From NCBI GenBank assembly GCA_014729675.1, contig WJJM01000044.1:1-53428 (forward strand): 53,428 bases of DNA, read 5' to 3'. Below, in pieces: positions 5,348 through 24,804 of the stretch. The translations under genes were made by a program, and so were the position numbers. The notes beneath the pieces are model-generated. The model had not been told where the DNA came from. It saw only the letters and a program-made list of their open reading frames with translations, and made no database searches. This DNA comes from Candidatus Woesearchaeota archaeon (lineage in GTDB: Archaea; Nanobdellota; Nanobdellia; Woesearchaeales; WJKL01). How positions within the stretch are numbered: position 1 is the stretch's first letter; the number at the start of each line of letters is the position of its first letter.

Positions 5348-6037
5348 ATGGAAAGAGAAAAGACAGGCATAAAAAAAGCGGATTCTATGATGCAGGGTGG
5401 CCTCCCAAAAGGAAGCATAATAAGCCTTACAGGCCCTCCTGGCGTAGGAAAGTCTATTTTTGTTCTTCATTTTCTTCTTGAAGGCGCAAGAAAAGGCCAG
5501 AAGTGTGTCTATATAAATCTTGAAGAGCCAAGAAGAAATATAGACAACATGATCAGCCAGTTTAATTTTTCCCGGGAGTTTTTAAGGTTTGTTGAAGAGG
5601 GAAAAATAGTGATAAAATGCTATACCTATCCAGAATATGAAAAACTATATTCTGAGCTGTTCCAGAAGATAAAAGAAGATGACAATATCCAGAGGCTTGT
5701 CATCGACAGCTTTAACTGCTTTTTCAGCTCAATGACCAACCAGGAATCATTAAACCTTCCTGTAGAGATAAGCAGCAGAAGGATGATCAACTATGCTTTT
5801 TCAATGCTCCGAAAGAAAGAACTGACCACAATAGCGATACTTGAGATGCATGACAGCAAGCACAGGTTTTATTATAATATCCCTTATCTTGTTGACGGCA
5901 TAATCAAGCTTGATTTTCTTGAACTAGGAACAATAGAAAGAAGAATATTTATCCCAAAGATGCGCTGGACTGACCAGTACAGGGAAAGCAGACCCTACGA
6001 GATCAGCAAAAAGGGAATAATTATTAAAGAAGAATAA
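5348..6037 (+). CDS. KaiC/RecA-superfamily ATPase with intact P-loop
   Basis: GIKKADSMMQGGLPKGSIISLTGPPGVGKSIFVLHFL (Walker A) and RLVIDSFN (Walker B). Single-domain archaeal KaiC-like architecture. Confidence 0.75.
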   Translation: MEREKTGIKKADSMMQGGLPKGSIISLTGPPGVGKSIFVLHFLLEGARKGQKCVYINLEEPRRNIDNMISQFNFSREFLRFVEEGKIVIKCYTYPEYEKLYSELFQKIKEDDNIQRLVIDSFNCFFSSMTNQESLNLPVEISSRRMINYAFSMLRKKELTTIAILEMHDSKHRFYYNIPYLVDGIIKLDFLELGTIERRIFIPKMRWTDQYRESRPYEISKKGIIIKEE

Positions 6038-6051
6038 TCTTTATAGTAGCT

Positions 6052-7152
6052 ATGGGCATAGAAAACAGGATCATAAACTACACCCTAAGCAAGCTGTTTT
6101 TTCCTAAAGTTGTAGTTATAGATAAACCTGGGGTAATTTATACAAAACAAGACAGATTATTTGGAAATCCTATAACCAGGAGGAGGATAGTTTATTATTT
6201 TGAAGATATCCTTGTCGAGCTTCATAAAGAGACTGTCAAACAGATAGGACCAAAAAAAACAGCAGAATTATGGTATAAGATAGGAAAAGACGTTGGAACA
6301 AGATTCTTATTATTATCCAAAGTTAGAAAACCGAATCATCTATTGATCCAGCCCATACTAGATCACATCTTTGCAGGACTGAGAAGCGGAGGGCAGTCTT
6401 TTGCAAAAAAAGTAAAATTTAATCCAAGAAAGAAGACCCTTGTACTTGAAGGAGATAATAATGTATTTTGCAGAAAGACAGGAGATGGAAGCTTCTTCGC
6501 AGGTCTTATAAGCGGCATTATGAGTTTTTTGGTTGGAGAAAATATTGAAACTGAAACTAGATGCAATTGTCCCGCTAATTGCAGGATAATTGCTGATCCT
6601 AAATTTAAGAAAAAATATATTCCTGATTTCAGTGAACTAGCCATAGATAAAAAATACTTTAAGATGAATTTCCCAGTTCCTATAAGTATCCCGGGAAATT
6701 CTCCATCATTTAGCGACATGATCCGATTTAAGAAAATAAGATTCAATAAAAGGGGCAAACCCACATATAGTAACAAGGCAATAATCCCTGGTGAACCAGG
6801 AATGGTAGGTATTACATATCTTAGAATGAGCAAATCCATCAAGAATATTGATAAAATTCTAACAAAAAGTTCAGAAAAACTGGCCAACGACATATTTAAA
6901 AACAAATTCTCAACTCCAAAAAAGATTAAAGAAACATTGAATTTACTATGTGTTCTAGGCTATGGTATTCCATCTTACCGGAACTTAAAAGAAGAATTAG
7001 AGATTTCTTTTAAGTTCCCACCTTATAGCAAGTACAATTATGATTTCCAAGCAAGAATTCTGAATGGTTTTTTAAATGCAGTATACAATAGGAGACTTAG
7101 ACTAATAAAATATGAGAAAACTACGAATAAAATTATATTCCTCTATTCATAA
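6052..7152 (+). CDS. Uncharacterised protein, probably with V4R-like (4-vinyl-reductase-type) ligand-binding domain(s)
   Basis: ELWYKIGKDVGTRF...VLEGDNNVFCRKTGDGSFFAGLISGIMSFLVGENIETETRCNCPANCRIIADP matches the V4R pattern (C..G...F.AG.ISG..S.L.G...E..C....C). The C-terminal half may be a second degenerate copy. Confidence 0.45.
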   Translation: MGIENRIINYTLSKLFFPKVVVIDKPGVIYTKQDRLFGNPITRRRIVYYFEDILVELHKETVKQIGPKKTAELWYKIGKDVGTRFLLLSKVRKPNHLLIQPILDHIFAGLRSGGQSFAKKVKFNPRKKTLVLEGDNNVFCRKTGDGSFFAGLISGIMSFLVGENIETETRCNCPANCRIIADPKFKKKYIPDFSELAIDKKYFKMNFPVPISIPGNSPSFSDMIRFKKIRFNKRGKPTYSNKAIIPGEPGMVGITYLRMSKSIKNIDKILTKSSEKLANDIFKNKFSTPKKIKETLNLLCVLGYGIPSYRNLKEELEISFKFPPYSKYNYDFQARILNGFLNAVYNRRLRLIKYEKTTNKIIFLYS

Positions 7153-11619: not shown

Positions 11620-12640
11620 AGATTATCTTGAATCAAGAAAAGGATACATCAACAGGAAGATAGACTCGTTTCTGCCTGAGAAGATATCTTTGGAGTGGCT
11701 TAATGAGAATATAGGCGGAAATGATTATGATGAAGAGTCAATATCAAGCATGCTGCTGCCGGCAAAAGAGCTTATTAAAAGAGGAGGAAAAAGGTGGAGG
11801 CCTGCCCTCATGCTCCTCTGCTGCAAGGCAGTCAACGGAGGCTCAAAGATACAGGACCTTGTCCCCCTTGTAGAAATAATACACAACGGTACACTTATGA
11901 TAGACGACGTAGAGGACAATTCTGATAAGAGAAGAGGCAAAGAGAGCATACATAGGATTTTCGGGACAGATACAGCGATAAACACAGGAAATCTTATGTA
12001 CTATCTCCCTTACATCATTCTTAAGAAGATAGACGTCGACAAGAAACTGAAACTGGAGATGCACGAGATTATAGCAGAAGAGATGCTGAAGCTTCATCTC
12101 GGTCAGGGTATGGACATCTTCTGGCACAACAATAGCAGGATTCCAGATGAACAGGCCTATCTGCAGATGTGTGCTTTCAAGACAGGCACGCTTGCAAGGA
12201 TGTCAGCAAAATTAGGGGCATCGTTCGGGGATGCAGGCAAGAAACAAAAAGATGCTCTTGGGAACTTTGCTGAATCCATAGGCATAGCGTTCCAGATACA
12301 AGATGATATACTCAATATTTCCGGCAGGCTTGGTAAGGAATACGGGGATGACATAAGCGAAGGAAAAAAGACGCTCATGGTCATAAAGGCTGCAGAAAAA
12401 GCAACTCCTGAAGACATGAAAAGACTTCTTGATATCCTGAGCATGAAGACAAAAGATCCTGGATTGATACAGGAAGCAGTGGACATATTAAACAAGTACC
12501 ATACTGTGCAGTACGCAAGATCCCGTGCAAAAGAAATAGTCCGGGATGCATGGAGATCTTTAAGCCCCTTGATAAAAGAATCAGATTCCAAGAAAAAGCT
12601 GAAGATGTTTGCAGATTTTCTTGTTGAGAGGGAAATATGA
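11612..12640 (+). CDS. idsA: Polyprenyl (geranylgeranyl) diphosphate synthase
   Basis: First Asp-rich motif LMIDDVEDNSDKRRG and second Asp-rich motif FQIQDDILN. 8-nt overlap with the upstream gene. Confidence 0.8.
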   Translation: MFKDYLESRKGYINRKIDSFLPEKISLEWLNENIGGNDYDEESISSMLLPAKELIKRGGKRWRPALMLLCCKAVNGGSKIQDLVPLVEIIHNGTLMIDDVEDNSDKRRGKESIHRIFGTDTAINTGNLMYYLPYIILKKIDVDKKLKLEMHEIIAEEMLKLHLGQGMDIFWHNNSRIPDEQAYLQMCAFKTGTLARMSAKLGASFGDAGKKQKDALGNFAESIGIAFQIQDDILNISGRLGKEYGDDISEGKKTLMVIKAAEKATPEDMKRLLDILSMKTKDPGLIQEAVDILNKYHTVQYARSRAKEIVRDAWRSLSPLIKESDSKKKLKMFADFLVEREI

Positions 12641-13002
12641 TTCTTGAAGACATATTAGGCAATAAAGAAGATAAAAAAACTCTTAAAGAGGTTATGCATA
12701 TCTGCAGAACAGATTCTATCTGGGACATTATTGATGTTTACTGCTGCGTGATGCTTAATGAACAGGCGATCAAAGAAAGAAGGTCAGACAATTGTCCAGG
12801 CAAAAAAGGAGACAAGATCATATTGTTCCCAAAGCTTAGGAAGATCAGGGCATTGTATGAAATTTCAGATAAGCCCTCACATTTTTTTGAAAACCCATAT
12901 GCTGCAAAACATGGACTGACACAAGAAGGATTTAAGAATTTCCTAAGGCAATTTAAATATGATTATGAATCATATAATAAAAAAGACAGACTTCTAGACT
13001 AA
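12637..13002 (+). CDS. Hypothetical protein (121 aa), last gene of the YjbQ-synthase-GGPPS operon
   Basis: ATGA overlap with the GGPPS stop. No recognisable motif. Confidence 0.5.
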   Translation: MILEDILGNKEDKKTLKEVMHICRTDSIWDIIDVYCCVMLNEQAIKERRSDNCPGKKGDKIILFPKLRKIRALYEISDKPSHFFENPYAAKHGLTQEGFKNFLRQFKYDYESYNKKDRLLD

Positions 13003-13214
13003 CCAGGATAAAAAAACCTATCTATTTATCCATTTTTTATCAATGTTATCTATCTTTTAGAGTAAGGTTTATAAATATATTTACCCTATATCACATTAGA
13101 GAATTATCTCCTAAAAGTGGAATAATAAAATTACCCTTGGGTGAAACACCAAAAAAAGATATATGATTCACTCAATTTCCCAAAGAACAATATTATTTTT
13201 TGGGGGCGATAGAT

Positions 13215-14003
13215 ATGTTATCAACTAAGAAAATGATAACTCCTTTACTGGAGTTAGGGCTGAACAAATACGAGGCAAAAGTATACCTCACTTTAATAGG
13301 AGAAGGCATCTCCACAGCAAAAAATATCTCAGACATAACAGGAATACCTTATGGAAAGGTATATGAGATAATAAACAGCTTGGCAGGAAAAGGATTCTGC
13401 AAGATCCTTCCTTCAAAACCTATGAAATGCCAGGCCATCTCTCCAAAACAAGCCATAGATAAGGCCAAAGAGAGCATGGAACAAAAATATAAGTCTCTCG
13501 AAAAGCATGTCCTTGAAGAGCTTGAGCCGATGTTTACAGAATCCAAGAAATTCATAGAGCCAAAAGGCGTTTTCTGGATAATCAACGGCCGAGCAAATGT
13601 TGTTAAGAAAATAGACGAGCTTATACAAAAAGCAGAGAAGAACATAAATATACACTGTTCGCCTAACAGCCTCTCAAGGCTTATCCTCCACAAGGACCTG
13701 CTGAAAGAGGCAAAAGCAAGAGGAGTAGAGATATCGATTGCAGGAGTGATAGATAAAAAAGAGCTTCAGGAAGAGATAAAGAAACTGGATTTTTGCGACA
13801 TAAGAAAAGCAAAGACTGCAGAAAACAATCTTATATCCATAGACAACAAAGAAAGCCTTGTAGTAGAGCCCATCCCTGACGATGACAATATAATGTATGG
13901 GCGAGATCTTGGTATGCTGGTGTCTTCCTCTTCATTCACAAGATTTATAGACGAGTTCTTCACTCTGAATTTCAAGAAGGCAAGAAAACTATCGATGGAT
14001 TGA
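13215..14003 (+). CDS. TrmB-family transcription regulator (copy 1)
   Basis: LGLNKYEAKVYLTLIGEGISTAKNISDITGIPYGKVYEIINSLAGKGF winged HTH plus a TrmB-type C-terminal domain. ATG at 13215 is preferred over TTG at 13200. Confidence 0.8.
   Translation: MLSTKKMITPLLELGLNKYEAKVYLTLIGEGISTAKNISDITGIPYGKVYEIINSLAGKGFCKILPSKPMKCQAISPKQAIDKAKESMEQKYKSLEKHVLEELEPMFTESKKFIEPKGVFWIINGRANVVKKIDELIQKAEKNINIHCSPNSLSRLILHKDLLKEAKARGVEISIAGVIDKKELQEEIKKLDFCDIRKAKTAENNLISIDNKESLVVEPIPDDDNIMYGRDLGMLVSSSSFTRFIDEFFTLNFKKARKLSMD
13302..13377 (+). repeat. 76-nt tract 75/76 identical to 14178-14253 (inside the two TrmB genes)
   Basis: gaaggcatctccacagcaaaaaatatctcagacataacaggaataccttatggaaaggt[a/c]tatgagataataaaca. 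Flanking codons are diverged at the nucleotide level. Confidence 0.9.
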
Positions 14004-14093
14004 TTTTTTCTTTTCCTCTTTTAAGAGGTAATATGCTGTTCTTATTTTATCATATAAAAAAATGATATATATCCTGCTTAGTACAGCATTGGC

Positions 14094-14876
14094 ATGGATA
14101 CTTCAAGCACACTAAAGCCCCTTGAAGAAATGGGATTAAGCAAATACGAATCAAAGATATATCTTACTTTGATCAGCGAAGGCATCTCCACAGCAAAAAA
14201 TATCTCAGACATAACAGGAATACCTTATGGAAAGGTCTATGAGATAATAAACACGCTTTCTCAAAAGGGATTTGCCATGGTCCTGCCTTCTAAGCCAATG
14301 AAGTACAGCGCCGTATCCCCTCAGCAGTCCATAGCCAATGCAAGAAAAGAAGCTAGGAAGAGATTTGAGAAGATAGAATCCAGCCTGTTAAGGCAGCTTG
14401 AGCCGATATTTGCCAAAAACAAGAACTTTGCAGGCTCAAAAAGCAGTTTTCTGGTGATCAACGGAAGGTCAAACATTGTCAGAAGGACAGAAGAGATGAT
14501 AAAAAAGGCAAAGAAAAACATAAATATACAGTGCAGCGCAAATTCCCTGTCAAGGCTGATAATCCATAAAGAGGCATTAAAAGAAGCTGCAGATAATGGC
14601 GTGGAAATCTCGATAGCAGGGATAACAGGCAGTGAAAATGCAGAAGAGGTATCATCTCTGGGCTTTTGCAGGTTGAAACACATCGAGTCAGCCAAAAGCA
14701 ACCTGATATCTATAGATGGAAAAGAAAGCCTTATAACCAGCCCTTCTCCTGATGATGACAACATACTTTACGGAAGAGACTTAGGAATATCAGCTGCAAG
14801 CAGCTCTTTCACAAGATTCATAGATAATTTCTTTGAGATAAATTTTAAAAAAGCAAAGGAGATAAGATATAAATGA
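14094..14876 (+). CDS. TrmB-family transcription regulator (copy 2, tandem paralog)
   Basis: MGLSKYESKIYLTLISEGISTAKNISDITGIPYGKVYEIINTLSQKGF. Collinear with copy 1 over its whole length. Confidence 0.8.
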   Translation: MDTSSTLKPLEEMGLSKYESKIYLTLISEGISTAKNISDITGIPYGKVYEIINTLSQKGFAMVLPSKPMKYSAVSPQQSIANARKEARKRFEKIESSLLRQLEPIFAKNKNFAGSKSSFLVINGRSNIVRRTEEMIKKAKKNINIQCSANSLSRLIIHKEALKEAADNGVEISIAGITGSENAEEVSSLGFCRLKHIESAKSNLISIDGKESLITSPSPDDDNILYGRDLGISAASSSFTRFIDNFFEINFKKAKEIRYK

Positions 14877-15247
14877 AATACAGGAAAACTGCCCTTAAAA
14901 AAGATAAAAATCTCTGGGAAAGAGCCAAAAAGAAAACAGGCTGCGGCCAGGGAAAAAGACATTCTGCAAGAGCCTGCCAATTGGCTGTGAGGCTTTACAA
15001 GAAACTTGGAGGGAAATACAAGGGAAAGAAGACCAAGACAAGCCTTTCAAAATGGACAGACGAGAGGTGGGATTATACTGGCAAGCCGAAAAAATCAAGA
15101 TATCTTCCTGAAAAGGCCAGGAAAAAACTCACTAAAGAAGAAAAAGCCGCAACAAACAGGGTTAAAAACAAGGGCACTAAAAAAGGGAAGAAGTATGTCC
15201 CTTATTCTGAAAAGATAAAAAAGATAGTTAGAAAGGCTACAAGATGA
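14873..15247 (+). CDS. Highly basic small protein (124 aa)
   Basis: ATGA overlap with the TrmB-2 stop. HSARACQLAVRLYKKLGGKYKGKK....LSKWTDERW resembles, from memory, a small conserved domain seen in viral and bacterial hypothetical proteins. Unverified. Confidence 0.5.
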   Translation: MKYRKTALKKDKNLWERAKKKTGCGQGKRHSARACQLAVRLYKKLGGKYKGKKTKTSLSKWTDERWDYTGKPKKSRYLPEKARKKLTKEEKAATNRVKNKGTKKGKKYVPYSEKIKKIVRKATR

Positions 15248-15612
15248 GATACAGCCATATAAACTTCAGACCCCCTGCAGGAGCAAGAAAAGCTGCAAAA
15301 AGAGGACTTGAACTTAGAAAAAAATTCCACAGGGGCGGATTAAGTTCTAAAAAAGCAGGAAAATTGGGAATAGGCTCTGGCATAGTTCGGGCTGTAAATA
15401 TTTCTAAAGGCTCCAAGATATCCCCTGATACAGTAAGGCGCATGAAAAACTATTTTACAAGACACCAAAAAGATAAAAGGCCTGGCTGGGGCAATCCAGG
15501 GAATCCTACAAACGGATATATAGCCTGGATGTTGTGGGGAGGGGACCCAGGATTTGCATGGGCCAAAAAGATAGTCAAACAGATGGAAAATGAGGATAAA
15601 AGGTCCAGATAG
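15244..15612 (+). CDS. Basic small protein (122 aa)
   Basis: ATGA overlap with the previous gene. PPAGARKAAKRGLELRKKF.RGG...G..RA..ISKG..ISPDTVRRMKNYFTRH...GYIAWMLWGGDPGFAWAKK resembles a domain I recall from phage and prophage proteins. Unverified. Confidence 0.5.
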   Translation: MRYSHINFRPPAGARKAAKRGLELRKKFHRGGLSSKKAGKLGIGSGIVRAVNISKGSKISPDTVRRMKNYFTRHQKDKRPGWGNPGNPTNGYIAWMLWGGDPGFAWAKKIVKQMENEDKRSR

Positions 15613-15731: not shown

Positions 15732-16949
15732 ATGTATCTGAAGACAGGAATCCCAAAACTAGATGAACTATTAGATGGAGGCATTGCAAGGAACAAGAGC
15801 ATATTATTCTATTCTTCTCCCGGAGTCGAGAATCTTCCCTTTGCATATCAGCTTCTGCTCAACAGGCTTGAGCAGGGAGATCACGTGATATACATGGTCA
15901 ACAATAAAAAGCCTGAATCAGTAAGATATATGATAAAGAACATAGGATGGGACGTTTCTGAATTTGAGAAAAAGGACAAATTCGCTTTCTTGGATGTATA
16001 CTCAGGATTGTTGGGTGAAAAGAGCAAGGAGAAATTTTCAGTTAGCGACACAGCAAATATTGATAAGATTCAGGAAGAGCTTATAAATGCATTGAGACAG
16101 TATAAAAACAAAAATACGATTGTTATATTTGACTCCTTGTCCAATCTGCTTGATATATGCGGCACTCCTGAAGACATAATAGCCTGCCTGCATGAATGCA
16201 TGCCCGACATAAAAAGATTTAATGCAACTCCTATCTTTCTTTTTACAGCATGGGCATATGATAAGAAAACTCTTGATAAGATAAGAACATCATTCGACTG
16301 CATTATCGACTTAAAAGCTATAGAAAGAAAAATCATATTAAGAAACTATTTTAATGTCTCTAAAGCAAGCTGGCTCAGAAAACTCAGGAGAAAGGATATC
16401 CCTTTTAAGATATCAAGACCAGGAGGAGTCAGGGTATATATCCCAAAAATTCTCGTAACAGGCCCATTTAATGCAGGTAAGACAAGCTTTATCCATTCAG
16501 CATCTACATCAGCTGTCTCCGTGGACAGGCTCGGGACCACAGTCGCATTAGACCACGGGCATGTGGATTTTAAAGGCTTCTCTGTAGACCTGTGGGGGAC
16601 TCCCGGCCAGAAAAGGTTTGATCCTATACTTGAGCAGCTTGGAAGCGAATCTTTGGGAGTCATAGTCTTAGTTGACAGCACTTCTCCTGAGGGGTTCGAA
16701 AGGGCAAGGGCCATGTTTGAGCTGACAAAAACCCAGGGGCTGCCGTCCATCGTAGCTGCGAACAAATCCAGCCTTAAGGGGGCAATGAAGCCTGTTGAAA
16801 TAAGGAAAATCATGAAACTGCCAAAAGATATCCCAATAATCCCTGTTTCAGCTGAAAATCCAAAGAAAGCAATGAAAAATCACCCTTGCAAACTTAAACA
16901 AAAAGACGTGGAAAATATTTTGTCAGGGTTATTCGAGATGGTAATATAA
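15732..16949 (+). CDS. Fusion protein: degenerate KaiC/RecA-like domain + small Ras-like/MglA-type (COG2229-like) GTPase domain
   Basis: N-terminal half: GIPKLDELLDGGIARNKSILFYSSPGVENLPFAYQ (GK[ST] of Walker A lost), IVIFDSLSNL. C-terminal half: G1 VTGPFNAGKTS, G2 LGTTVA, G3 DLWGTPGQ, G4-like AANKSS, G5-like VSAE. ATG at 15732 is preferred over TTG at 15720. Confidence 0.7.
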   Translation: MYLKTGIPKLDELLDGGIARNKSILFYSSPGVENLPFAYQLLLNRLEQGDHVIYMVNNKKPESVRYMIKNIGWDVSEFEKKDKFAFLDVYSGLLGEKSKEKFSVSDTANIDKIQEELINALRQYKNKNTIVIFDSLSNLLDICGTPEDIIACLHECMPDIKRFNATPIFLFTAWAYDKKTLDKIRTSFDCIIDLKAIERKIILRNYFNVSKASWLRKLRRKDIPFKISRPGGVRVYIPKILVTGPFNAGKTSFIHSASTSAVSVDRLGTTVALDHGHVDFKGFSVDLWGTPGQKRFDPILEQLGSESLGVIVLVDSTSPEGFERARAMFELTKTQGLPSIVAANKSSLKGAMKPVEIRKIMKLPKDIPIIPVSAENPKKAMKNHPCKLKQKDVENILSGLFEMVI

Positions 16950-16977
16950 TTTCAGAATAAATGAGGAGGTAAAATAA

Positions 16978-17313
16978 ATGGCGTACAAAAATATCAATAC
17001 TGTATTAATATCATTAAGTATGGTATTTATGGCAGTCTCAGCATATTATTCCATAAAAGTAAGCAGGATATTTTCCTATAAAAACAGCTGGTTTTCCTTT
17101 GGAGGAAGACTAAAGACACTATGGAAAACCCTGCCGGCATTCATAATCTTTTTCCTTTTAGGATATATAGCGTATATGGTCGCATACCTAACTGGATCTA
17201 TTGTCAACTACATGCTGCTGACATCCCTGATATTCTTCTCAGGGGCATTATTCGTATTTGCGATAGTATATATAAATTTCAGGACGTTCAGGACAATCAA
17301 CAGGGAAAAATAA
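16978..17313 (+). CDS. Small integral membrane protein (3 predicted helices)
   Basis: Shine-Dalgarno-like GAGGAGG lies 9 nt upstream. Three hydrophobic segments. Stop is 1 nt before the next start. Confidence 0.6.
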   Translation: MAYKNINTVLISLSMVFMAVSAYYSIKVSRIFSYKNSWFSFGGRLKTLWKTLPAFIIFFLLGYIAYMVAYLTGSIVNYMLLTSLIFFSGALFVFAIVYINFRTFRTINREK

Positions 17314-17314
17314 T

Positions 17315-17686
17315 ATGGCTGAAACAAAAAAAAAGAAACTTAGCACAGTACTGCAGAAATTAACTTCAACAGGAGACATAGATGGAGCTGTTGTAATCAC
17401 AAGAGATGGCCTGCTTGTCGCTTCTGAACTTACTGAAAGCATCGATTCAGACACATTAGCAGCTATGGCAGCCACAATGACAGGGGCTGCAGAGACAGCG
17501 ATACAGGAGCTTAAGAAATCATCCCCTGACAGGGTAATTGTCGAATCAAAAAACACAAAGATGATAACTGTCGGCGCAGGAGACGATGCAATCCTAGTGT
17601 GCATCATGAAACCTTCTGCAAAACTTGGAATAATCCTGCTTGAGATGAAGAAAGCTGCTGAAAAAATTGAAAAAGAGGTAAAATAG
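17315..17686 (+). CDS. Roadblock/LC7 (MglB-like) domain protein, copy 1
   Basis: LQKLTSTGDIDGAVVITRDGLLVASEL....DSDTLAAMAATMTGAAETA.......VIVESKNTKMITVGAGDDAILVCI is canonical Roadblock/LC7. Confidence 0.8.
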   Translation: MAETKKKKLSTVLQKLTSTGDIDGAVVITRDGLLVASELTESIDSDTLAAMAATMTGAAETAIQELKKSSPDRVIVESKNTKMITVGAGDDAILVCIMKPSAKLGIILLEMKKAAEKIEKEVK

Positions 17687-18946
17687 ATGAAAATAAGGTC
17701 AAAATTCATGATAGCATTCATATTGATCTTCTTATTATTTACATGCATATGCGGAACACTTTTTTACCGTTTCTCTGAGGCATATATTAAAAAAGAGATA
17801 TATTCGCATCTTCAGACCACAGCACAGTCAAGAGCAGAACACATAATATATTTTCTTGAAGAGCAGGAAAACAAGCTTGATCTTATCGCTACAGAACCCA
17901 CTCTCTTAAATTTCATAAAAACAGACAAAGATGATCCCGATTATGAATCATTAAGGAAAAATGCAAACAAAAGAATAAAAGAGATAGGCAAAGGAGTAGG
18001 CATATTTGATACAGAAGGGATAGTGCTTGCAGCAGAAAATAATCCTCCCGGAACAGACTATTCTGATACTGTTTTCTTCCAGAAAGACACCAACAAGACA
18101 GAGTATCTTATGTATTATGATATAGCCAGGGAAAATTACAACATAGGCGTTATCAAATGGATAAAAGACCAGGCTAATAGGCGGATTGGAGTGGTCGGTT
18201 TTGATATCCACGCTGAAGGATTATTTGAAATAACCACCGATACTACGGGACTAGGAGATACAGGAGAAGCATATCTTATCAACAAGGACATGATGATGAT
18301 AAGCCCATCAAGGTTCGAAGAAGACACAATATTCAGCCGGGAAGTGTTGACAGAAAAAGCGATCCACTGTTATGACACTAATAAACCTGCAAAAGAATAT
18401 GAAAGCAAGTCAGCACTGAATACATATAGGGATTATAGGGGTGAAGAAGTGATCGGAACTTATTATTATATACCTCAAACACGATGGTGCCTTATTGTAG
18501 AGATCGATGCGTCAGAAGCGCTGGTGCTGCTTGATACAATCAGGAATGTAATAATCATAGTATCTATTTTAGTATTTGTATTAGGTGCAGGAATGTTTTT
18601 CTTTGCTGCAGAAACAATAACTAAACCGATAAATAATCTAAAATGCTGCGCAGACAGGATAAAAAAAGGCAATCTCAAACAGAGATGCATAGTGAAGACA
18701 AGAGACGAATTGGAAAATCTTGCTCAGTCTTTTGATGATATGCGTCTGGCCATCAAAGACAGGAATGATCTTCTGGATTCCTTTTTAAATTCATTTAAAG
18801 GAAAATTTGGGAATATAGCCACAATACTTGCAAGAAAAGAGATAGAAAAACTTATCAAGAAAAACCCAAGAATAGAGGGGATACTCCCCGCATCTCTTAA
18901 GGAATCTGTAAAAAAAAGCAAAAAATTCAGAAATAAAAAAGATTAA
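17687..18946 (+). CDS. Membrane sensor: TM - Cache-like extracytoplasmic domain - TM - HAMP, with no recognisable output domain
   Basis: TM1 FMIAFILIFLLFTCICGTLFY. About 270-aa extracytoplasmic region (GIFDTEGIVLAAEN.., GEAYLINKDMMMISPSRF). TM2 IIIVSILVFVLGAGMFFFAAE. HAMP TKPINNLKCCADRIKKGNLKQRCIVKTRDELENLAQSFDDM. No H-box or ATPase motifs in the ~75-aa tail. Confidence 0.7.
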   Translation: MKIRSKFMIAFILIFLLFTCICGTLFYRFSEAYIKKEIYSHLQTTAQSRAEHIIYFLEEQENKLDLIATEPTLLNFIKTDKDDPDYESLRKNANKRIKEIGKGVGIFDTEGIVLAAENNPPGTDYSDTVFFQKDTNKTEYLMYYDIARENYNIGVIKWIKDQANRRIGVVGFDIHAEGLFEITTDTTGLGDTGEAYLINKDMMMISPSRFEEDTIFSREVLTEKAIHCYDTNKPAKEYESKSALNTYRDYRGEEVIGTYYYIPQTRWCLIVEIDASEALVLLDTIRNVIIIVSILVFVLGAGMFFFAAETITKPINNLKCCADRIKKGNLKQRCIVKTRDELENLAQSFDDMRLAIKDRNDLLDSFLNSFKGKFGNIATILARKEIEKLIKKNPRIEGILPASLKESVKKSKKFRNKKD

Positions 18947-18948
18947 AG

Positions 18949-19326
18949 ATGACTAAAGGCACAAAACAATCAAAACTGAAGAATATCCTTGAAGATCTGG
19001 ACAATATAGGTGATATAAAAGGCAGTATTGTAATCTCTGTAGACGGCCTTGTGATATCTTCCAACATTAAAGAAGGGATCGATACAGATACATTAGCAGC
19101 AATGTCTGCCGCGATGCAGGGAGCAGCAGAAACAGCTGTCTCAGAACTGAAGCAGGGCGGCCTTAAGCAGGTAGTGATAGAATCAGAAAAAGGGAAGATG
19201 GTATCCATATCTGCAGGAGAAGATGCGATCCTGATAATCCTGGCTAACAAAACAATCAATCTTGGGCTTGCTCTGCTGGAGTTAAGCAAAGCAGCAGGAT
19301 CAATATCCAAGATAATAGGTGAATAG
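18949..19326 (+). CDS. Roadblock/LC7 (MglB-like) domain protein, copy 2
   Basis: LEDLDNIGDIKGSIVISVDGLVISS.....DTDTLAAMSAAMQGAAETA....LKQVVIESEKGKMVSISAGEDAILIIL. Confidence 0.8.
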   Translation: MTKGTKQSKLKNILEDLDNIGDIKGSIVISVDGLVISSNIKEGIDTDTLAAMSAAMQGAAETAVSELKQGGLKQVVIESEKGKMVSISAGEDAILIILANKTINLGLALLELSKAAGSISKIIGE

Positions 19327-20139
19327 ATGGCAAAAAAAAACTACAACAAGCTTAATACCACACTGGTGCAAAATCTAAAGAAGAAGATAAAAGAGCTAAG
19401 AATATCTGAAGAAAAGTACAGGAAAGTGATAAACAACCTATCAGATATCATCTTTTCCTATGATCCCTATACCCTAAAGATAAATTTCATCACGCCCAAT
19501 GTGCATTCTTTTTTAGGATACAAGCCAGAAGAAGTTTTAGGACATAAGATAGACGAATTTATACACCCTGATGACAGGGAAAAAGTACTCAGTGAGCTAA
19601 AAGATTCATTGAAGACAAGAGAAGAAACCCCGACTGAGATCCGCTTATTAAAAAAAGACAACACACATATGTGGATAGAAGAAAGAGGAAAGATAGCAAA
19701 AAAAGAAGGAAAGATAGAAGGCATGTCCGGTGTAATAAGGAACATAACAGAAAAGAAAAAATCAGAGAAAAAACTTAGGGAAAGCGAACAGAAGTACAGG
19801 GCATTGTTCGATAAAGCAAATGATGCGATCTTCATAGCAGACCCATCCACTGGAAAGATAATCGACGCAAACGAACAGGCAGCAAAACTCCTGGGATTGC
19901 CGCTGAAAAAGATAATTGGCATGCACCAGACCAGACTGCATCCGCCTGATAAGGCAAATCTATATGCAAAGAAATTCAGGGATCATATCCAAAAAGGCCA
20001 TGCTGCTGATTTTGAAGCAGAGGTCATCACAAAAAACAAAAAAAGAATTCCTGTATATATCAGCGCAAGCGTTATAAAGATAGGCGGCAGGGATATCATA
20101 CAGGGAATCTTTAGAGACATATCAGACCTGAAAAAATGA
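19327..20139 (+). CDS. Tandem PAS-domain protein without output domain
   Basis: Two PAS-like units: EEKYRKVINNLSDIIFSYD...FLGYKPEEVLG and SEQKYRALFDKANDAIFIADPSTGKIIDANEQAAKLLG. TAG-ATG juxtaposition with the upstream gene. Confidence 0.7.
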   Translation: MAKKNYNKLNTTLVQNLKKKIKELRISEEKYRKVINNLSDIIFSYDPYTLKINFITPNVHSFLGYKPEEVLGHKIDEFIHPDDREKVLSELKDSLKTREETPTEIRLLKKDNTHMWIEERGKIAKKEGKIEGMSGVIRNITEKKKSEKKLRESEQKYRALFDKANDAIFIADPSTGKIIDANEQAAKLLGLPLKKIIGMHQTRLHPPDKANLYAKKFRDHIQKGHAADFEAEVITKNKKRIPVYISASVIKIGGRDIIQGIFRDISDLKK

Positions 20140-20768
20140 TAAACATTCCCAAAAATTCAGCTTCGATCATAGTAAGCCCCCCTCTGGAGGGGAAAAAGGA
20201 GTTAATGTTCCAGCTGATAAGGCGCGCGCTTCAGGATAAGGAGCCAGTCATATTTCTTTTGACAGATACATCCCCTGAAGAGATAAAAAAAGAGCTTCTT
20301 AAGAGCAAGATATATTATGGAGCAAAAAAAGGCCTGTTGAATTTTATTGACTGCTATTCCCAGCAGGCTGGAAATGATGTTTCAGATACTAAAGATACAA
20401 GAAGGATTTCAGGTCCCCTTGCATTCAACGAGATAAGCATAGCCCTTGCTCAGCTGGAGAAAGACCTGTTCAATACAAGCAAGAGCCACACTATAATATT
20501 TGATTCCCTGTCAACCATACTTATGTATTCTAATCCTCAGATGGCAGGCAGATTTCTCCAGATATTGATAGCAAAGATAAAGAATGCTGGCGGCTCTGTC
20601 TTATTTACACTTGAAGAAGGAATGCATAACAAGAAAGACATGATTACAATAGAGCATCTCATGCAGGCTATAATCCATCTGAAGCAGAAAAATAATAAGA
20701 TCATGATAAAAGCAGAAGGCATCAAGGACATGGAGGGGTGGAAAGAATTTAAAAACCAAAAACCTTAA
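20136..20768 (+). CDS. KaiC/RecA-like protein with degenerate Walker A
   Basis: ASIIVSPPLEGKKELMFQLIRRAL (P-loop-like, but GKK in place of GK[ST]), IIFDSLSTIL Walker-B-like. ATGA overlap with the PAS gene. Confidence 0.6.
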   Translation: MINIPKNSASIIVSPPLEGKKELMFQLIRRALQDKEPVIFLLTDTSPEEIKKELLKSKIYYGAKKGLLNFIDCYSQQAGNDVSDTKDTRRISGPLAFNEISIALAQLEKDLFNTSKSHTIIFDSLSTILMYSNPQMAGRFLQILIAKIKNAGGSVLFTLEEGMHNKKDMITIEHLMQAIIHLKQKNNKIMIKAEGIKDMEGWKEFKNQKP

Positions 20769-20854
20769 TAAACATTGTGATGCATTACCAATAACTTTTA
20801 AAAACATATTTTTTCATATCAGTATAATTACATTTAAAAAACAACCAAGACAAG

Positions 20855-21247
20855 ATGGAAAGCAGGCAAAAAGTGATCATCGCAGATGATGAAAGAGCAG
20901 TACGGGATCTGCTGGAGACCATATTCAGCGAAAGCTATGATGTTAATACAGCATCTGATGGAAAACAGGCTCTCGATACATACCTTACTTCAGGGGATAA
21001 TTGTTCTCCTGCAAGAGCAGTCATAACAGACAGGCAGATGCCTGGGAAAGACGGCTTTTATCTTGCATCTGAGATAAGAAAATATGATCCAGATATCCCC
21101 ATTGTCATGCTTAGCGGAGGGCTTTCACAGCAGGACATTGAAAGGGCATACAGTTCTGGAATAACACATATAGAACAAAAACCCATAAAAGATTTTATAG
21201 AGTTCAAATCAAATATAGACAAACTTGTATTGGATTATCTTCGATAA
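20855..21247 (+). CDS. Stand-alone response-regulator receiver (CheY-like) domain protein
   Basis: VIIADDE, phospho-acceptor context VITDRQMPGKDG, VMLSG, EQKP. Confidence 0.8.
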   Translation: MESRQKVIIADDERAVRDLLETIFSESYDVNTASDGKQALDTYLTSGDNCSPARAVITDRQMPGKDGFYLASEIRKYDPDIPIVMLSGGLSQQDIERAYSSGITHIEQKPIKDFIEFKSNIDKLVLDYLR

Positions 21248-23364: not shown

Positions 23365-24804
23365 TTGTCTGCTTCAGATATATTAAAAGAAAACGATTTT
23401 AAAGAAGAGGTCTGGGAAGAGAAAAAAGATCAGTTTCTCCCTACTGGCTATCCTGCTCCGCTTAAAAGATATAAGGTTGTCTGGGAAGCATTTAATATGA
23501 ACATGGAGGAGGCATATTTCTGGACACTCAACCATACTCAGGACTTGGGTTATCATAAGATAGACAAGACAGAGGATATTTTTTCTGCTTCTGAGAATTC
23601 TGCTTTCTTCGGCGTTTCCCAGCAGAGGATAGGCCTTCAGCAGGACAAGGTCAGCCAGTATCTTGCTACCATAGGAAAGATGACAAAAGAGCTTTTCCAG
23701 CTGGTAAGAGAATTAAGGATAATAGATGAGAGGATGCAGTACTACAGAGAAAGCATGGGCTATGACAAAGACGGTAACTATACAGGAGAATTCAAGGAAA
23801 GTTCTGAGATAACACTGAAAGGCATATATATAGACATGGTGCAGGGAGGCTCTAAAAATCCTGCATCTATCTATGGTATGGCAAGAGAGGTCGGTTTTAC
23901 ATCTTTGCCTGACTTGTTTTTTTCGACACATCCAAAAGACTCAGGCGAAGTTGAAAAGGTTGTAGAGTCTCAAAGAGGCGGCTTTAACAAGAAAGTAAGA
24001 GTTGTATTGATAAGACATCTTAAATCATATCTTGTCTGGAAAGAAAACACATTCAAAGAGCTTAAGACAAGAAGAACATTCACATTAAGATATCTAAGAC
24101 AGCATTTTGATATAATAAAGATGTATATGCAGTGGGTAAGGCCGTATCTAAAACATATTAAAAGGCTCACTATGGATGAAGATAAGATGCTTGAGCCTCA
24201 ACTCATATCAGCCTTTGAAGGAAGTATGCTTGAGGTTGAATTTCTTGCATATAAGTTTCCTGTAGATCAAAAGACCACAAAAACAAACAAGAAGGTCTAT
24301 GCATGCATACTTGCAAATTTTCTTTACACGACAAGGCCTTCAATGTCTTTTCAGCAGGAAGGTTATCAAAGAGGCCCTATCCATGTAGGAAAAGTCGAAG
24401 CTACTTTCAGGGCATATGCCTGGGACGATGATACTATCAAACGATACAAGAAGATGAAAGAGCAGCAGGATCTAGAGATGATGAAATCTATATCAGACTC
24501 TGTAAAGGCTGCAATGGATGCTCTTGGAGATGAGTTTGAGAGCTATCTTGAAGAGGCTGGAGAAGTTATAGAAAAAGAAGAAGAGGCAAAAAAAGAAGAG
24601 AAGAAAGAACCCGGCTTCATGGAACGACTGAGAGCCGAATTTATAGGCCCTAAAAAAGAAAAAAAACCAAAGGAAAAAAAGCCTTCCAAGGCAGACGAAG
24701 CAAAGAAAAAATCAGAACAAGGCAAGGCATCCAAAGCTGCAAAGATGGACTTGTTTTTAACTTTCAAGAATTTCAAGAAAGCTCATGGCATGGTCATGTG
24801 GTAA
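23365..24804 (+). CDS. Large protein of unknown function (479 aa): globular body, K/E-rich linker, short hydrophobic C-terminal tail
   Basis: TTG start in the track. No motif recognised. The C-terminus reads ...EEEAKKEEKKEPGF..KKEKKPKEKKPSKADEAKKKSEQGKASKAAKMDLFLTFKNFKKAHGMVMW. Confidence 0.65.
   Translation: MSASDILKENDFKEEVWEEKKDQFLPTGYPAPLKRYKVVWEAFNMNMEEAYFWTLNHTQDLGYHKIDKTEDIFSASENSAFFGVSQQRIGLQQDKVSQYLATIGKMTKELFQLVRELRIIDERMQYYRESMGYDKDGNYTGEFKESSEITLKGIYIDMVQGGSKNPASIYGMAREVGFTSLPDLFFSTHPKDSGEVEKVVESQRGGFNKKVRVVLIRHLKSYLVWKENTFKELKTRRTFTLRYLRQHFDIIKMYMQWVRPYLKHIKRLTMDEDKMLEPQLISAFEGSMLEVEFLAYKFPVDQKTTKTNKKVYACILANFLYTTRPSMSFQQEGYQRGPIHVGKVEATFRAYAWDDDTIKRYKKMKEQQDLEMMKSISDSVKAAMDALGDEFESYLEEAGEVIEKEEEAKKEEKKEPGFMERLRAEFIGPKKEKKPKEKKPSKADEAKKKSEQGKASKAAKMDLFLTFKNFKKAHGMVMW

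Follow-up and report, generated by a model that had tools for sequence, protein, structure and literature searches.

A kinase-free sensory operon of a Woesearchaeota contig elaborates a pan-archaeal KaiC::GTPase and Roadblock module and may encode a G-protein signalling device

How might a signal leave an operon that encodes sensors but no kinase to pass it on? The question is raised by positions 15732-21247 of a 53,428-nucleotide (nt) contig stretch from Candidatus Woesearchaeota archaeon, here called the window, in which eight plus-strand open reading frames (ORFs), G1 to G8, have the coordinates given for them in an earlier, sequence-only reading of this DNA. Central to the operon is a gene that fuses a KaiC-like domain to a small GTPase, and with it lie genes for two Roadblock/LC7 proteins, two sensors and a second KaiC-like protein. 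We found that the operon is no one-off but a DPANN elaboration of a three-gene core present across the archaea, and we think it moderately probable that the locus is a kinase-free G-protein signalling device, with a Roadblock-regulated switch carried on a KaiC-like scaffold and supplied by exchangeable sensors. The eight genes are as follows.

G1, 15732-16949, plus strand: KaiC/RecA-fold domain with a dead P-loop (about 15732-16442) followed by a small G domain of MglA/CvnD type (about 16443-16949).
G2, 16978-17313, plus strand: protein of 111 amino acids (aa) with three hydrophobic segments; accessory, possibly a membrane anchor.
G3 (Roadblock-1), 17315-17686, plus strand: Robl_LC7 (PF03259, 7e-18), orthologue of the MglB-type Roadblock of the core.
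G4, 17687-18946, plus strand: sensor with the order transmembrane (TM) segment, dCache_1, TM segment, HAMP, and a new C-terminal module (about 18743-18946).
G5 (Roadblock-2), 18949-19326, plus strand: Robl_LC7 (PF03259, 6e-19), DPANN-specific paralogue.
G6, 19327-20139, plus strand: cytoplasmic PAS-PAS sensor without enzymatic output.
G7, 20136-20768, plus strand: KaiC-like pseudo-ATPase of the DUF7504 type, orthologue of the KaiC-like partner in the core.
G8, 20855-21247, plus strand: single-domain response-regulator receiver (Response_reg, PF00072, 4.5e-18).

Searches with Pfam and NCBIfam profiles upheld every domain call of the sequence-only reading, including its proposal that G1 joins a degenerate KaiC/RecA domain to a GTPase of the COG2229/MglA type. 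The protein starts with ATG at the same Met as its homologues; its residues 3-237 match KaiC (PF06745, 1.3e-27) and residues 237-378 match Arf (2.6e-10), Ras/MMR_HSR1 and the small_GTP model TIGR00231 (1.5e-15), with the G domain forming the last 168 aa of the 405-aa fusion, an architecture found in all 87 homologues examined. The Walker A motif of the KaiC domain reads PGVEN, and its lysine is missing from 87/87 fusions. In the G domain, the P-loop GPxxAGK[ST] (motif G1) and Q293 are invariant both in these 87 proteins from across the archaea and in 90/90 of the closest homologues, T269-T270 (the Thr-Thr pair of motif G2) and G289-T-P-G-Q293 (the GTPGQ of motif G3) are invariant in 87/87, and the P-loop, the Thr-Thr pair, the Gln of GTPGQ and R266 are unchanged in all 90. 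The combination of GTPGQ with Thr in place of Arg is the hallmark of MglA groups 2-5, to which CvnD/MfpB belong (Wuichet & Sogaard-Andersen 2014, PMC4316618), and judged by its motifs the G domain is of the MglA/COG2229 type and carries this signature.

The AlphaFold2 model of full-length G1 is confident as a single body (pLDDT 91, pTM 0.85), and the G domain modelled alone gave a pLDDT of 88. By Foldseek, the KaiC domain aligns with the hexameric protein PH0284 (2dr3) at a TM score of 0.88 and a root mean square deviation of 2.2 Å; no solved structure with a KaiC::GTPase fusion was found. The junction between the domains, PFK..PGGV.VYIPKILVTGP, is among the most conserved stretches of the fusion alignment, which suggests that the two are held in a fixed geometry. 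The closest relatives of G1 come from metagenome-assembled genomes of Nanoarchaeia, Nanoarchaeota, Woesearchaeota and Altiarchaeota.

Beyond these relatives the fusion family is large, with 1164 matches in the 8000 candidates that were scored, almost all of them of about 400 aa, and members in at least 580 GTDB species genomes. We surveyed the six-frame ORFs of 79 loci (these and further related loci are cited below by L number) with profiles seeded from the window's proteins, and 71 fusions had enough flanking sequence to be scored for neighbours within 5 kb on the same strand. By this measure, 69/71 fusions have a Roadblock gene (adjacent in 61/71), 64/71 have a stand-alone KaiC-like gene and 62/71 have both, the two being directly adjacent in 51/71. 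The typical unit is KaiC-like (~235 aa), KaiC::GTPase (~390 aa) and Roadblock (~122 aa), and the stop codon of one gene frequently overlaps the start of the next. This core is present in Methanosarcinales, Methanoperedens, ANME-2, Methanocellales, Archaeoglobaceae, Hydrothermarchaeales, Methanobacteriaceae and Methanomicrobiales, and also in Thermoplasmata, Bathyarchaeota, Thermoproteota, Nitrososphaerota, Altiarchaeota and DPANN archaea. Most lineages have it without any sensor; V4R genes are accessory in 11/71 loci (Archaeoglobi, Thermoplasmata, Halobacteriota and some DPANN), and PAS, Cache-HAMP and REC genes in few. In Methanosarcinales (L020-L037 and others, e.g. L022 11532-12719) the core Roadblock is followed on its 3' side by a YhbY/CRM-like 84-aa gene, S19e and a PDCD5-like gene, a neighbourhood conserved in 17-25 loci, and the core therefore appears to belong to a stable chromosomal set and not to mobile cargo.

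The KaiC-like partner of the core is represented in the window by G7, which matches DUF7504 (7.8e-12) and KaiC (PF06745, 6e-10). Its family signature DSLSTILMYSNPQ is common with the Methanoperedens partner NSLSTILMYSNIQ, and the stand-alone KaiC-like partners of other lineages share with it the signature [DN]SLSTILMYSN.Q. The sequence-only reading had described the P-loop of this protein as degenerate, which is true in part: the catalytic EE pair is replaced by TD, but the P-loop, SPPLEGKK, keeps its Gly-Lys. Among the partner proteins (n = 79), 66/79 retain GK in the P-loop, 16/79 have GK[ST] and 2/79 the catalytic Glu pair, and from these residues the partner may still bind nucleotide. Because Walker A or catalytic Glu motifs have been lost, both KaiC modules of the operon are classed as pseudo-ATPases, as the earlier reading had it. 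Its further suggestion that they take the place of a kinase and of DUF742 was not sustained, since both modules are part of the ancestral core, and that core also occurs where there is no sensor.

The operon has two Roadblock/LC7 genes, as had been read from the sequence, and in addition to the Pfam matches listed above G3 aligns with the Roadblock structure 9jue as its closest PDB entry (1e-16), with CvnB5 (3leq, 1e-6) and with MglB (3e-5); our literature search found no paper on PDB 9JUE ('Roadblock/LC7 domain protein'). With the core Roadblocks of Altiarchaeota and Methanosarcinales, G3 shares 56-58% identity. Orthologues of G5, with 54-60% identity, were found in L008, L002/3, L010 and L009, mostly just before the PAS gene. 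With the Roadblock gene duplicated, heterodimers would be possible. Both proteins have an Asp-Gly pair (RDGL in G3, VDGL in G5) of the kind reported for MglB partners of GTPGQ GTPases (PMC4316618).

Between and around the Roadblock genes lie the membrane protein and sensors. G4 was recognized as dCache_1 (7e-21) and HAMP (1.4e-6) with two hydrophobic segments, and no MCPsignal domain follows the HAMP domain (Pfam, E<=0.1); a methyl-accepting chemotaxis protein would have its signalling domain at that position. The arrangement that the sequence-only reading assigned to this sensor is therefore correct, but its statement that there is no output is not, because the protein continues for 62 residues past HAMP, ending in a conserved module of ~55 aa with the motif DRNDLL..FL..FKGKFGNIA.ILARK.I..L..KNPRI..ILP, and this module tracks Roadblock genes. 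The sensors of L007, L008, L089 and L090 have the same conserved tail. No Pfam model exists for it; an exhaustive search of 1.84 billion representative proteins gave a family of 46 representative clusters, in which the tail is invariably C-terminal. HAMP immediately precedes it in 30/32 members scanned, behind seven types of N-terminal sensor (dCache_1, Cache_3-Cache_2, dCache_2, sCache_2, 4HB_MCP, MASE3 and a kinase-type sensor domain), which is the architecture of a transmitter domain. Look-ups and a metagenome scan yielded 19 informative tail-bearing contigs, in 17 of which a same-strand Roadblock gene lies no more than ~2.5 kb away, mostly abutting the sensor; 12 also have the KaiC::GTPase fusion in view. 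Stand-alone tail proteins of 90-96 aa occur beside Roadblock genes in L008, L091, L094, L096 and L098 (profile E ~1e-16). We infer that the tail couples G4 to a Roadblock protein, or to the G1/G7 scaffold.

G6 has two PAS domains (TIGR00229, 1.2e-40), no TM segment and no output domain in Pfam, as previously described. In the window and in L002, L009, L089, L090, L093 and L099, a PAS or GAF-PAS gene stands between Roadblock-2 and the KaiC-like gene and overlaps the start of that gene, which suggests a cytoplasmic branch composed of Roadblock-2, the PAS protein and the KaiC-like protein. The three hydrophobic segments expected of G2 were found, with no family match in Pfam. Three-TM proteins of ~105-111 aa hold its position in L006, L007 and L008, a 107-aa protein in L002 corresponds in size and position, two G2-like genes precede the Roadblock gene in L071, and L090 has no counterpart. 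In L007, an ABC_sub_bind lipoprotein gene (12239-13222; PF04392, 3.7e-41) overlaps the start of a HAMP-tail sensor that has no Cache domain and matches 4HB_MCP weakly; the lipoprotein may be a separate periplasmic ligand-binding partner of that sensor.

Conservation of gene order, on which the earlier interpretation had been staked beforehand, was found in two close relatives and in distant DPANN loci. In L089, where the fusion is 77% identical to G1, the order is TrmB, TrmB, fusion, two small ORFs, Roadblock, FIST, TM-HAMP, two TM ORFs, Roadblock, GAF-PAS, DUF7504-KaiC, a small ORF, REC and aIF2-gamma. L090 (71% identical) has TrmB and, further on, fusion, Roadblock, FIST, TM-HAMP, Roadblock, a protein with three PAS domains and DUF7504-KaiC, followed at some distance by aIF2-gamma and S6e. 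At greater divergence L002 reads TrmB, fusion, 107-aa protein, 95-aa protein, V4R, Roadblock, PAS-PAS, KaiC-like; L008 reads TrmB, fusion, TM proteins, Roadblock, Cache-HAMP, Roadblock; and L009 reads fusion, Roadblock, PAS-PAS, KaiC-like. Thus in L089 and L090 dCache has given way to FIST plus TM-HAMP, and PAS-PAS to GAF-PAS or to three PAS domains. Input domains that change while the partners stay the same are what one would expect of a signalling pathway.

The absence of a histidine kinase and of DUF742, on which the question turns, was confirmed. None of the eight proteins matches HisKA, HATPase_c, MCPsignal or DUF742 (PF05331) in Pfam at E<=0.1, nor do the upstream genes or the accessory small proteins match DUF742 at that threshold; GGDEF gave no Pfam match, and a profile made from the archaeal kinases of related loci detects no histidine kinase in the whole 53-kb window. 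A hidden kinase was rejected on these grounds. The receiver G8 has its phospho-acceptor residues intact (DD at 11-12, D59 in ITDRQMPGKDG, S in VMLSGG and K in EQKP), as in a two-component receiver, but the cognate kinase with HisKA and HATPase_c was found in neither the operon nor the window; L058 has the core together with REC and a complete PAS-HisKA-HATPase_c kinase. The receiver begins 86 nt after the preceding gene, as the ORF coordinates confirm. It had been called an orphan, which is too simple, given that in L089, L099 and L103, as in the window, the KaiC-like gene is immediately followed by a receiver.

The remaining junctions are tight. From G1 to G8 they measure 28, 1, 0, 2, 0, -4 (an ATGA overlap) and 86 nt, and the packing at 0-2 nt or by ATGA overlap that had been claimed for seven genes therefore applies from G2 to G7 but not between G1 and G2. 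The chance of five successive junctions of <=2 nt is ~1% (0.4^5); since 12/30 of the other same-strand junctions in the window are equally close, we treat the packing as ordinary evidence for an operon, not as exceptional. The unit had been drawn from G1 to the receiver. These genes do share a strand, but the operon probably extends upstream to two TrmB regulators at 13200-14876, and the neighbouring features are the following.

13200-14003, plus strand: TrmB paralogue 1 (TrmB 4.7e-19, Regulator_TrmB 4.8e-9), candidate regulator or output.
14094-14876, plus strand: TrmB paralogue 2 (TrmB 5.6e-21, Regulator_TrmB 9.6e-9).
14873-15247 and 15244-15612, between the second TrmB gene and G1: two small, very basic ORFs of 124 and 122 aa.
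Downstream of the operon, minus strand: aIF2-gamma and ribosomal protein S6e, genes that mark the host as archaeal.

TrmB precedes the fusion in nearly all loci of Woese/Nanoarchaeota type, and lies 5' of it in the DPANN loci L002/3, L007, L008, L009, L089, L090, L093 and L103; in L002 the TrmB stop overlaps the start of the fusion gene, and the TrmB pair is shared by L089 and L093. The two basic ORFs overlap each other and are chained to the second TrmB gene by ATGA overlaps. They have no Pfam or PADLOC match and no homologue in ~100 related loci, and we do not count them within the system; they may be a lineage-specific insertion, and the second of them may resemble phage-associated proteins.

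The mechanism that we favour builds on what the computations show: which domains are present and in what state their motifs are, how tight and ancient the linkage of G domain, Roadblock and KaiC-like proteins is, that gene order is kept, that one branch is anchored in the membrane, that sensors are swapped and that the tail goes with Roadblock genes. From these we infer, by analogy with characterized relatives, how the proteins would interact, which of them would act as GTPase-activating protein (GAP) or guanine nucleotide exchange factor (GEF), how they would oligomerize and what the output would be. MglB is the GAP of MglA, and PH0284 and KaiC are hexamers. The core would consist of an MglA/CvnD-type GTPase covalently and rigidly joined to a catalytically dead KaiC fold (G1), with two partners, the KaiC-like G7, probably binding nucleotide without hydrolysis, and the MglB-type Roadblock G3. 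Roadblock dimers would bind the G domain and set its GTP/GDP state, as MglB does for MglA and MfpD/CvnB for MfpB/CvnD; the conservon GTPase MfpB, which is of the GTPGQ type, has the Roadblock MfpD as its GAP (PMC11343762). The KaiC-fold domains would oligomerize, either as homo-rings or as hetero-rings with G7, and such a ring would gather several G domains and may couple their nucleotide state to its conformation. In DPANN archaea a membrane branch would be formed by the 3-TM protein G2, Roadblock-1 and the dCache-HAMP sensor G4, whose C-terminal helix-loop-helix-like module would serve as transmitter by recruiting or releasing Roadblock, and a cytoplasmic branch by Roadblock-2, the PAS-PAS protein G6 and the KaiC-like G7. 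The sensors would work through Roadblock availability or scaffold conformation. The effector would lie outside the core: in DPANN the upstream TrmB regulators, the downstream receiver or both are the most likely readouts, and in some methanogens the pilus machinery is a candidate. The role of GEF could fall to the second Roadblock, to V4R, to the KaiC-like partner or to the tail protein. The sequence-only reading had likewise pictured a GTPase switch fed by Cache and PAS sensors; its parts, motifs and synteny stand, with the corrections that the Cache sensor is not output-less and that the KaiC modules are no substitute for a kinase. More tentatively, and with rather less than even confidence, the same parts may make up a widespread, vertically inherited G-protein pathway of archaea that needs no two-component kinase, in which an MglA/Arf-like GTPase, lastingly attached to a ring of KaiC-fold pseudo-ATPases, is switched by Roadblock dimers and linked to interchangeable sensors by dedicated adaptors, the HAMP-tail module among them, with V4R added in some lineages. 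If so, the partnership of Roadblock, V4R and small GTPase known from Ragulator and TRAPP would be older than the Asgard archaea.

Several observations weigh against a Roadblock-regulated switch of this kind. The Asp that confers guanine specificity in motif G4 is missing from the window, where the motif reads NKSS (16761-16772, G1 residues 344-347), and from 57/90 of the closest relatives; these DPANN/Altiarchaeota homologues have NKxN in 56 cases, NKxD in 33 and NKxS in 1, that of the window, as against NKxD in 78/87 fusions across archaea. With NKSS or NKxN replacing NKxD an altered nucleotide specificity is possible, and as these residues read, specificity and even switching may differ in the window's clade. 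By sequence and by fold the G domain is also nearer to Arf/Arl than to solved MglA structures (its nearest matches by both measures are Arf/Arl/Rab33, and MglA structures are not among the top matches listed), and the analogy with MglA rests on the motifs and the Roadblock partner. No equivalent of the GEFs DUF742 or RomRX is recognizable, there is no effector common to the lineages (TrmB occurs only in DPANN, the receiver in few loci), and the close gene spacing is commonplace in this genome. The replaced Asp could even mean that the G domain of the DPANN clade no longer cycles GTP and has become a static or ATP/XTP-binding platform within a scaffolded sensor complex. An Asp-to-Asn change at the NKxD position shifts Ras and EF-Tu from GTP to XTP (xanthosine triphosphate), and it is NKxN that prevails among the closest homologues. 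We nevertheless regard such a platform as decidedly unlikely: the invariant P-loop, Thr-Thr pair, Gln and R266 in all 90 of these proteins argue for retained phosphate chemistry, and the Roadblock partners have been kept and even duplicated.

A different division of labour would make the KaiC-like oligomer the central element, acting on a type IV pilus (T4P)-like or other ATPase machine as ArlH/FlaH acts on the archaellum motor ATPase, or as GvpD does; the G domain and Roadblock would then only gate the scaffold, and surface structures (pili, adhesion) would be controlled, not transcription. This we consider unlikely, although more than one line of evidence leads to it. Genes for pilin-like proteins with class III signal peptides stand next to the module or just upstream of it in L069, L071, L072, L078 and L083 (Methanobacteriaceae/Methanomicrobiales), in the DPANN locus L086 and in L001/L006, the last two being Nanoarchaeia with a T2SSE/T2SSF/KaiC/pilin cluster ahead of the fusion. 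Archaeal T4P loci include Roadblock (arCOG02603) and KaiC-like genes (Makarova et al. 2016, PMC4858521), the T4P of Myxococcus is controlled by MglA/SofG (PMC4316618), and G1 and G7 have weak NCBIfam matches to ArlH/FlaH. Yet of roughly 75 non-redundant loci only about 7 have such neighbours, the surroundings of most Methanosarcinales cores are housekeeping genes, and both KaiC modules lack catalytic residues. Annotation of ~40 further ORFs found no T4P ATPase, platform or pilin gene in the window, so that pilus machinery was rejected there and the T4P link is a minority association elsewhere. Harder still to credit is a coincidental neighbourhood, in which only the fusion, Roadblock and KaiC-like proteins cooperate and the Cache-HAMP, PAS-PAS, TM and receiver genes are independent. 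It would draw on the frequent tight packing in this genome, on the sensor-free core of most lineages and on sensors without output domains recognized by Pfam, but the interleaved order of Roadblock, HAMP-tail sensor, Roadblock, PAS and KaiC-like gene recurs where G1 is only 50-77% identical, the tail module is nearly confined to such loci with Roadblock close by in 17/19, and input domains are exchanged while the tail and its neighbours persist. Least credible of all, and in our view very improbable, is an anti-phage defence system or mobile-element cargo assembled from NTPase and sensor modules. KaiC-like and GTPase modules are known in some defence systems, but the distribution is pan-archaeal and looks vertical, the synteny is with housekeeping genes, the locus has neither an integrase nor a nuclease or other effector, and its base composition is not anomalous (the G+C content, about 38%, is unremarkable). 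The sole PADLOC match among the proteins scanned was the marginal one of G7 to mad8 (E 0.0014), with none for the other nine, and defence was rejected.

A Roadblock-regulated switch on a KaiC-like scaffold, the reading to which we hold, has relatives among known systems without falling into any of them. As in MglA/MglB of Myxococcus xanthus and Thermus thermophilus, a Ras-superfamily G domain without the Asp of motif G3 is encoded beside a regulating Roadblock/LC7 gene, with links to receiver domains (RomR there) and, in some loci, to T4P genes. MglA group 1, however, has TVPGQ and Arg-Thr where the present G domain has GTPGQ and Thr-Thr, and MglA groups 2-5 are single-domain proteins of ~160-200 aa with the motif [NT]KxD, whereas G1 is a 405-aa KaiC fusion with NKSS. 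Further differences from MglA/MglB are the dead-KaiC fusion itself, the second KaiC-like protein, the two Roadblock paralogues and the dedicated sensors, and there is no RomR/RomX. The actinobacterial conservon (CvnA-D/MfpB-E) likewise has, within a single operon, genes for a membrane sensor, for the Roadblock protein MfpD/CvnB, which is the GAP, and for a GTPase of the GTPGQ type (CvnD/MfpB); the logic is kinase-independent and the G protein is the proposed output, as here. Its CvnA has a histidine-kinase-like HATPase_c domain where G4 has dCache_1, HAMP and the ~55-aa module, and its DUF742 protein (CvnC/MfpC, a GEF) has no recognized counterpart; conversely, the conservon does not have a GTPase fused to KaiC, a KaiC-like partner or an archaeal host, nor sensors as exchangeable as the archaeal ones (dCache, FIST, MASE3, 4HB, PAS, GAF, V4R). 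Because its G protein is not single-domain and because it has neither a kinase-like CvnA nor DUF742, we place the locus outside both systems. Roadblock-fold dimers, in several loci V4R (Bet3-like) too, together with an Arf-like small G domain recall Ragulator-Rag and TRAPP-Rab, a likeness that may extend to function; a Rag-type C-terminal Roadblock domain on the GTPase, longin and DENN are not present, and the scaffold here is a KaiC fold.

Archaeal KaiC-like proteins were reportedly described as 'signal transduction hubs' by Makarova, Galperin & Koonin in 2017, including inactivated KaiC (iKaiC), ArlH/FlaH and GvpD. Like those hubs, the operon has single-domain KaiC/RecA-fold proteins, often inactivated, beside PAS, REC, helix-turn-helix and other signalling domains; unlike hubs in general, it has an obligatory fusion to a small GTPase and a Roadblock partnership. 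An active KaiC ATPase/autokinase carries GxxxxGK[ST] and the catalytic Glu, and G1 and G7 share its RecA fold but fail these motifs. The window does encode a canonical KaiC that has both, ~10 kb upstream of the operon at 5348-6037 (Walker A GPPGVGKS, catalytic EE, PF06745 5e-38), and which, going by its motifs, is apparently active; it is syntenic in L089 (3-599) and L090 (350-1051), where a V4R-like gene is next. In the window it is directly followed by a 366-aa protein without a family match (6052-7152).

A full-text literature search, which did not cover Makarova et al. 2017, found no paper describing the KaiC-GTPase-Roadblock module. The account of MglA groups by Wuichet (2014, PMC4316618) treats single-domain GTPases only, with an archaeal group 4 that has no conserved neighbours, and that of V4R by Podar (2008) does not mention a GTPase or Roadblock neighbourhood. 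The core may have been noted computationally before, for example by Makarova et al. 2017; as far as we can tell, the novelty lies in the sensor layer of DPANN archaea, in the HAMP-tail module and in the quantitative description of the core. Archaea have few two-component systems and their environmental sensing is largely obscure, so that a module which ranges from DPANN to methanogens, ANME, Archaeoglobi, Thermoplasmata and TACK archaea, almost always as a tight unit, is a candidate for a major signalling pathway. For the KaiC hubs, a G-protein switch carried by a pseudo-ATPase scaffold would supply a concrete mechanism, and the bacterial MglA/MglB and conservon systems would acquire an archaeal relative of different architecture. 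The DPANN version separates the exchangeable parts, the sensors, from the fixed ones and reveals the new transmitter module after HAMP, and as the lineages with the core include genetically tractable methanogens, the hypothesis is directly testable.

Some further observations concern the loci surrounding the module. V4R genes (Bet3/TRAPPC3-like) adjoin Roadblock and fusion in L038, L041, L048, L053, L061, L073, L074, L080, L081 and L088, and L048 and L053 each contain two complete modules and, in tandem, several genes for V4R and Roadblock proteins. Archaeoglobi, Thermoplasmata, Halobacteriota and a DPANN contig thus supply non-Asgard operons that combine V4R, Roadblock and a small GTPase, and these bear on the origin of eukaryotic GTPase regulators. 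Translation-related genes neighbour the module in distant lineages, aIF2-gamma/S6e in the window and S19e in Methanosarcinales. The window contains no match to tRNA or other Rfam families. One contig labelled Anaerolineales bacterium (L054, JAIWAT010000091.1) has a typical KaiC, fusion and Roadblock unit of the Methanosarcinales type, and is probably a mis-binned archaeal contig and not a bacterial occurrence. At 23365-24804 the window encodes a 479-aa protein without a Pfam match, divergent from S6e, and a similar unannotated gene occupies the same place in L090.

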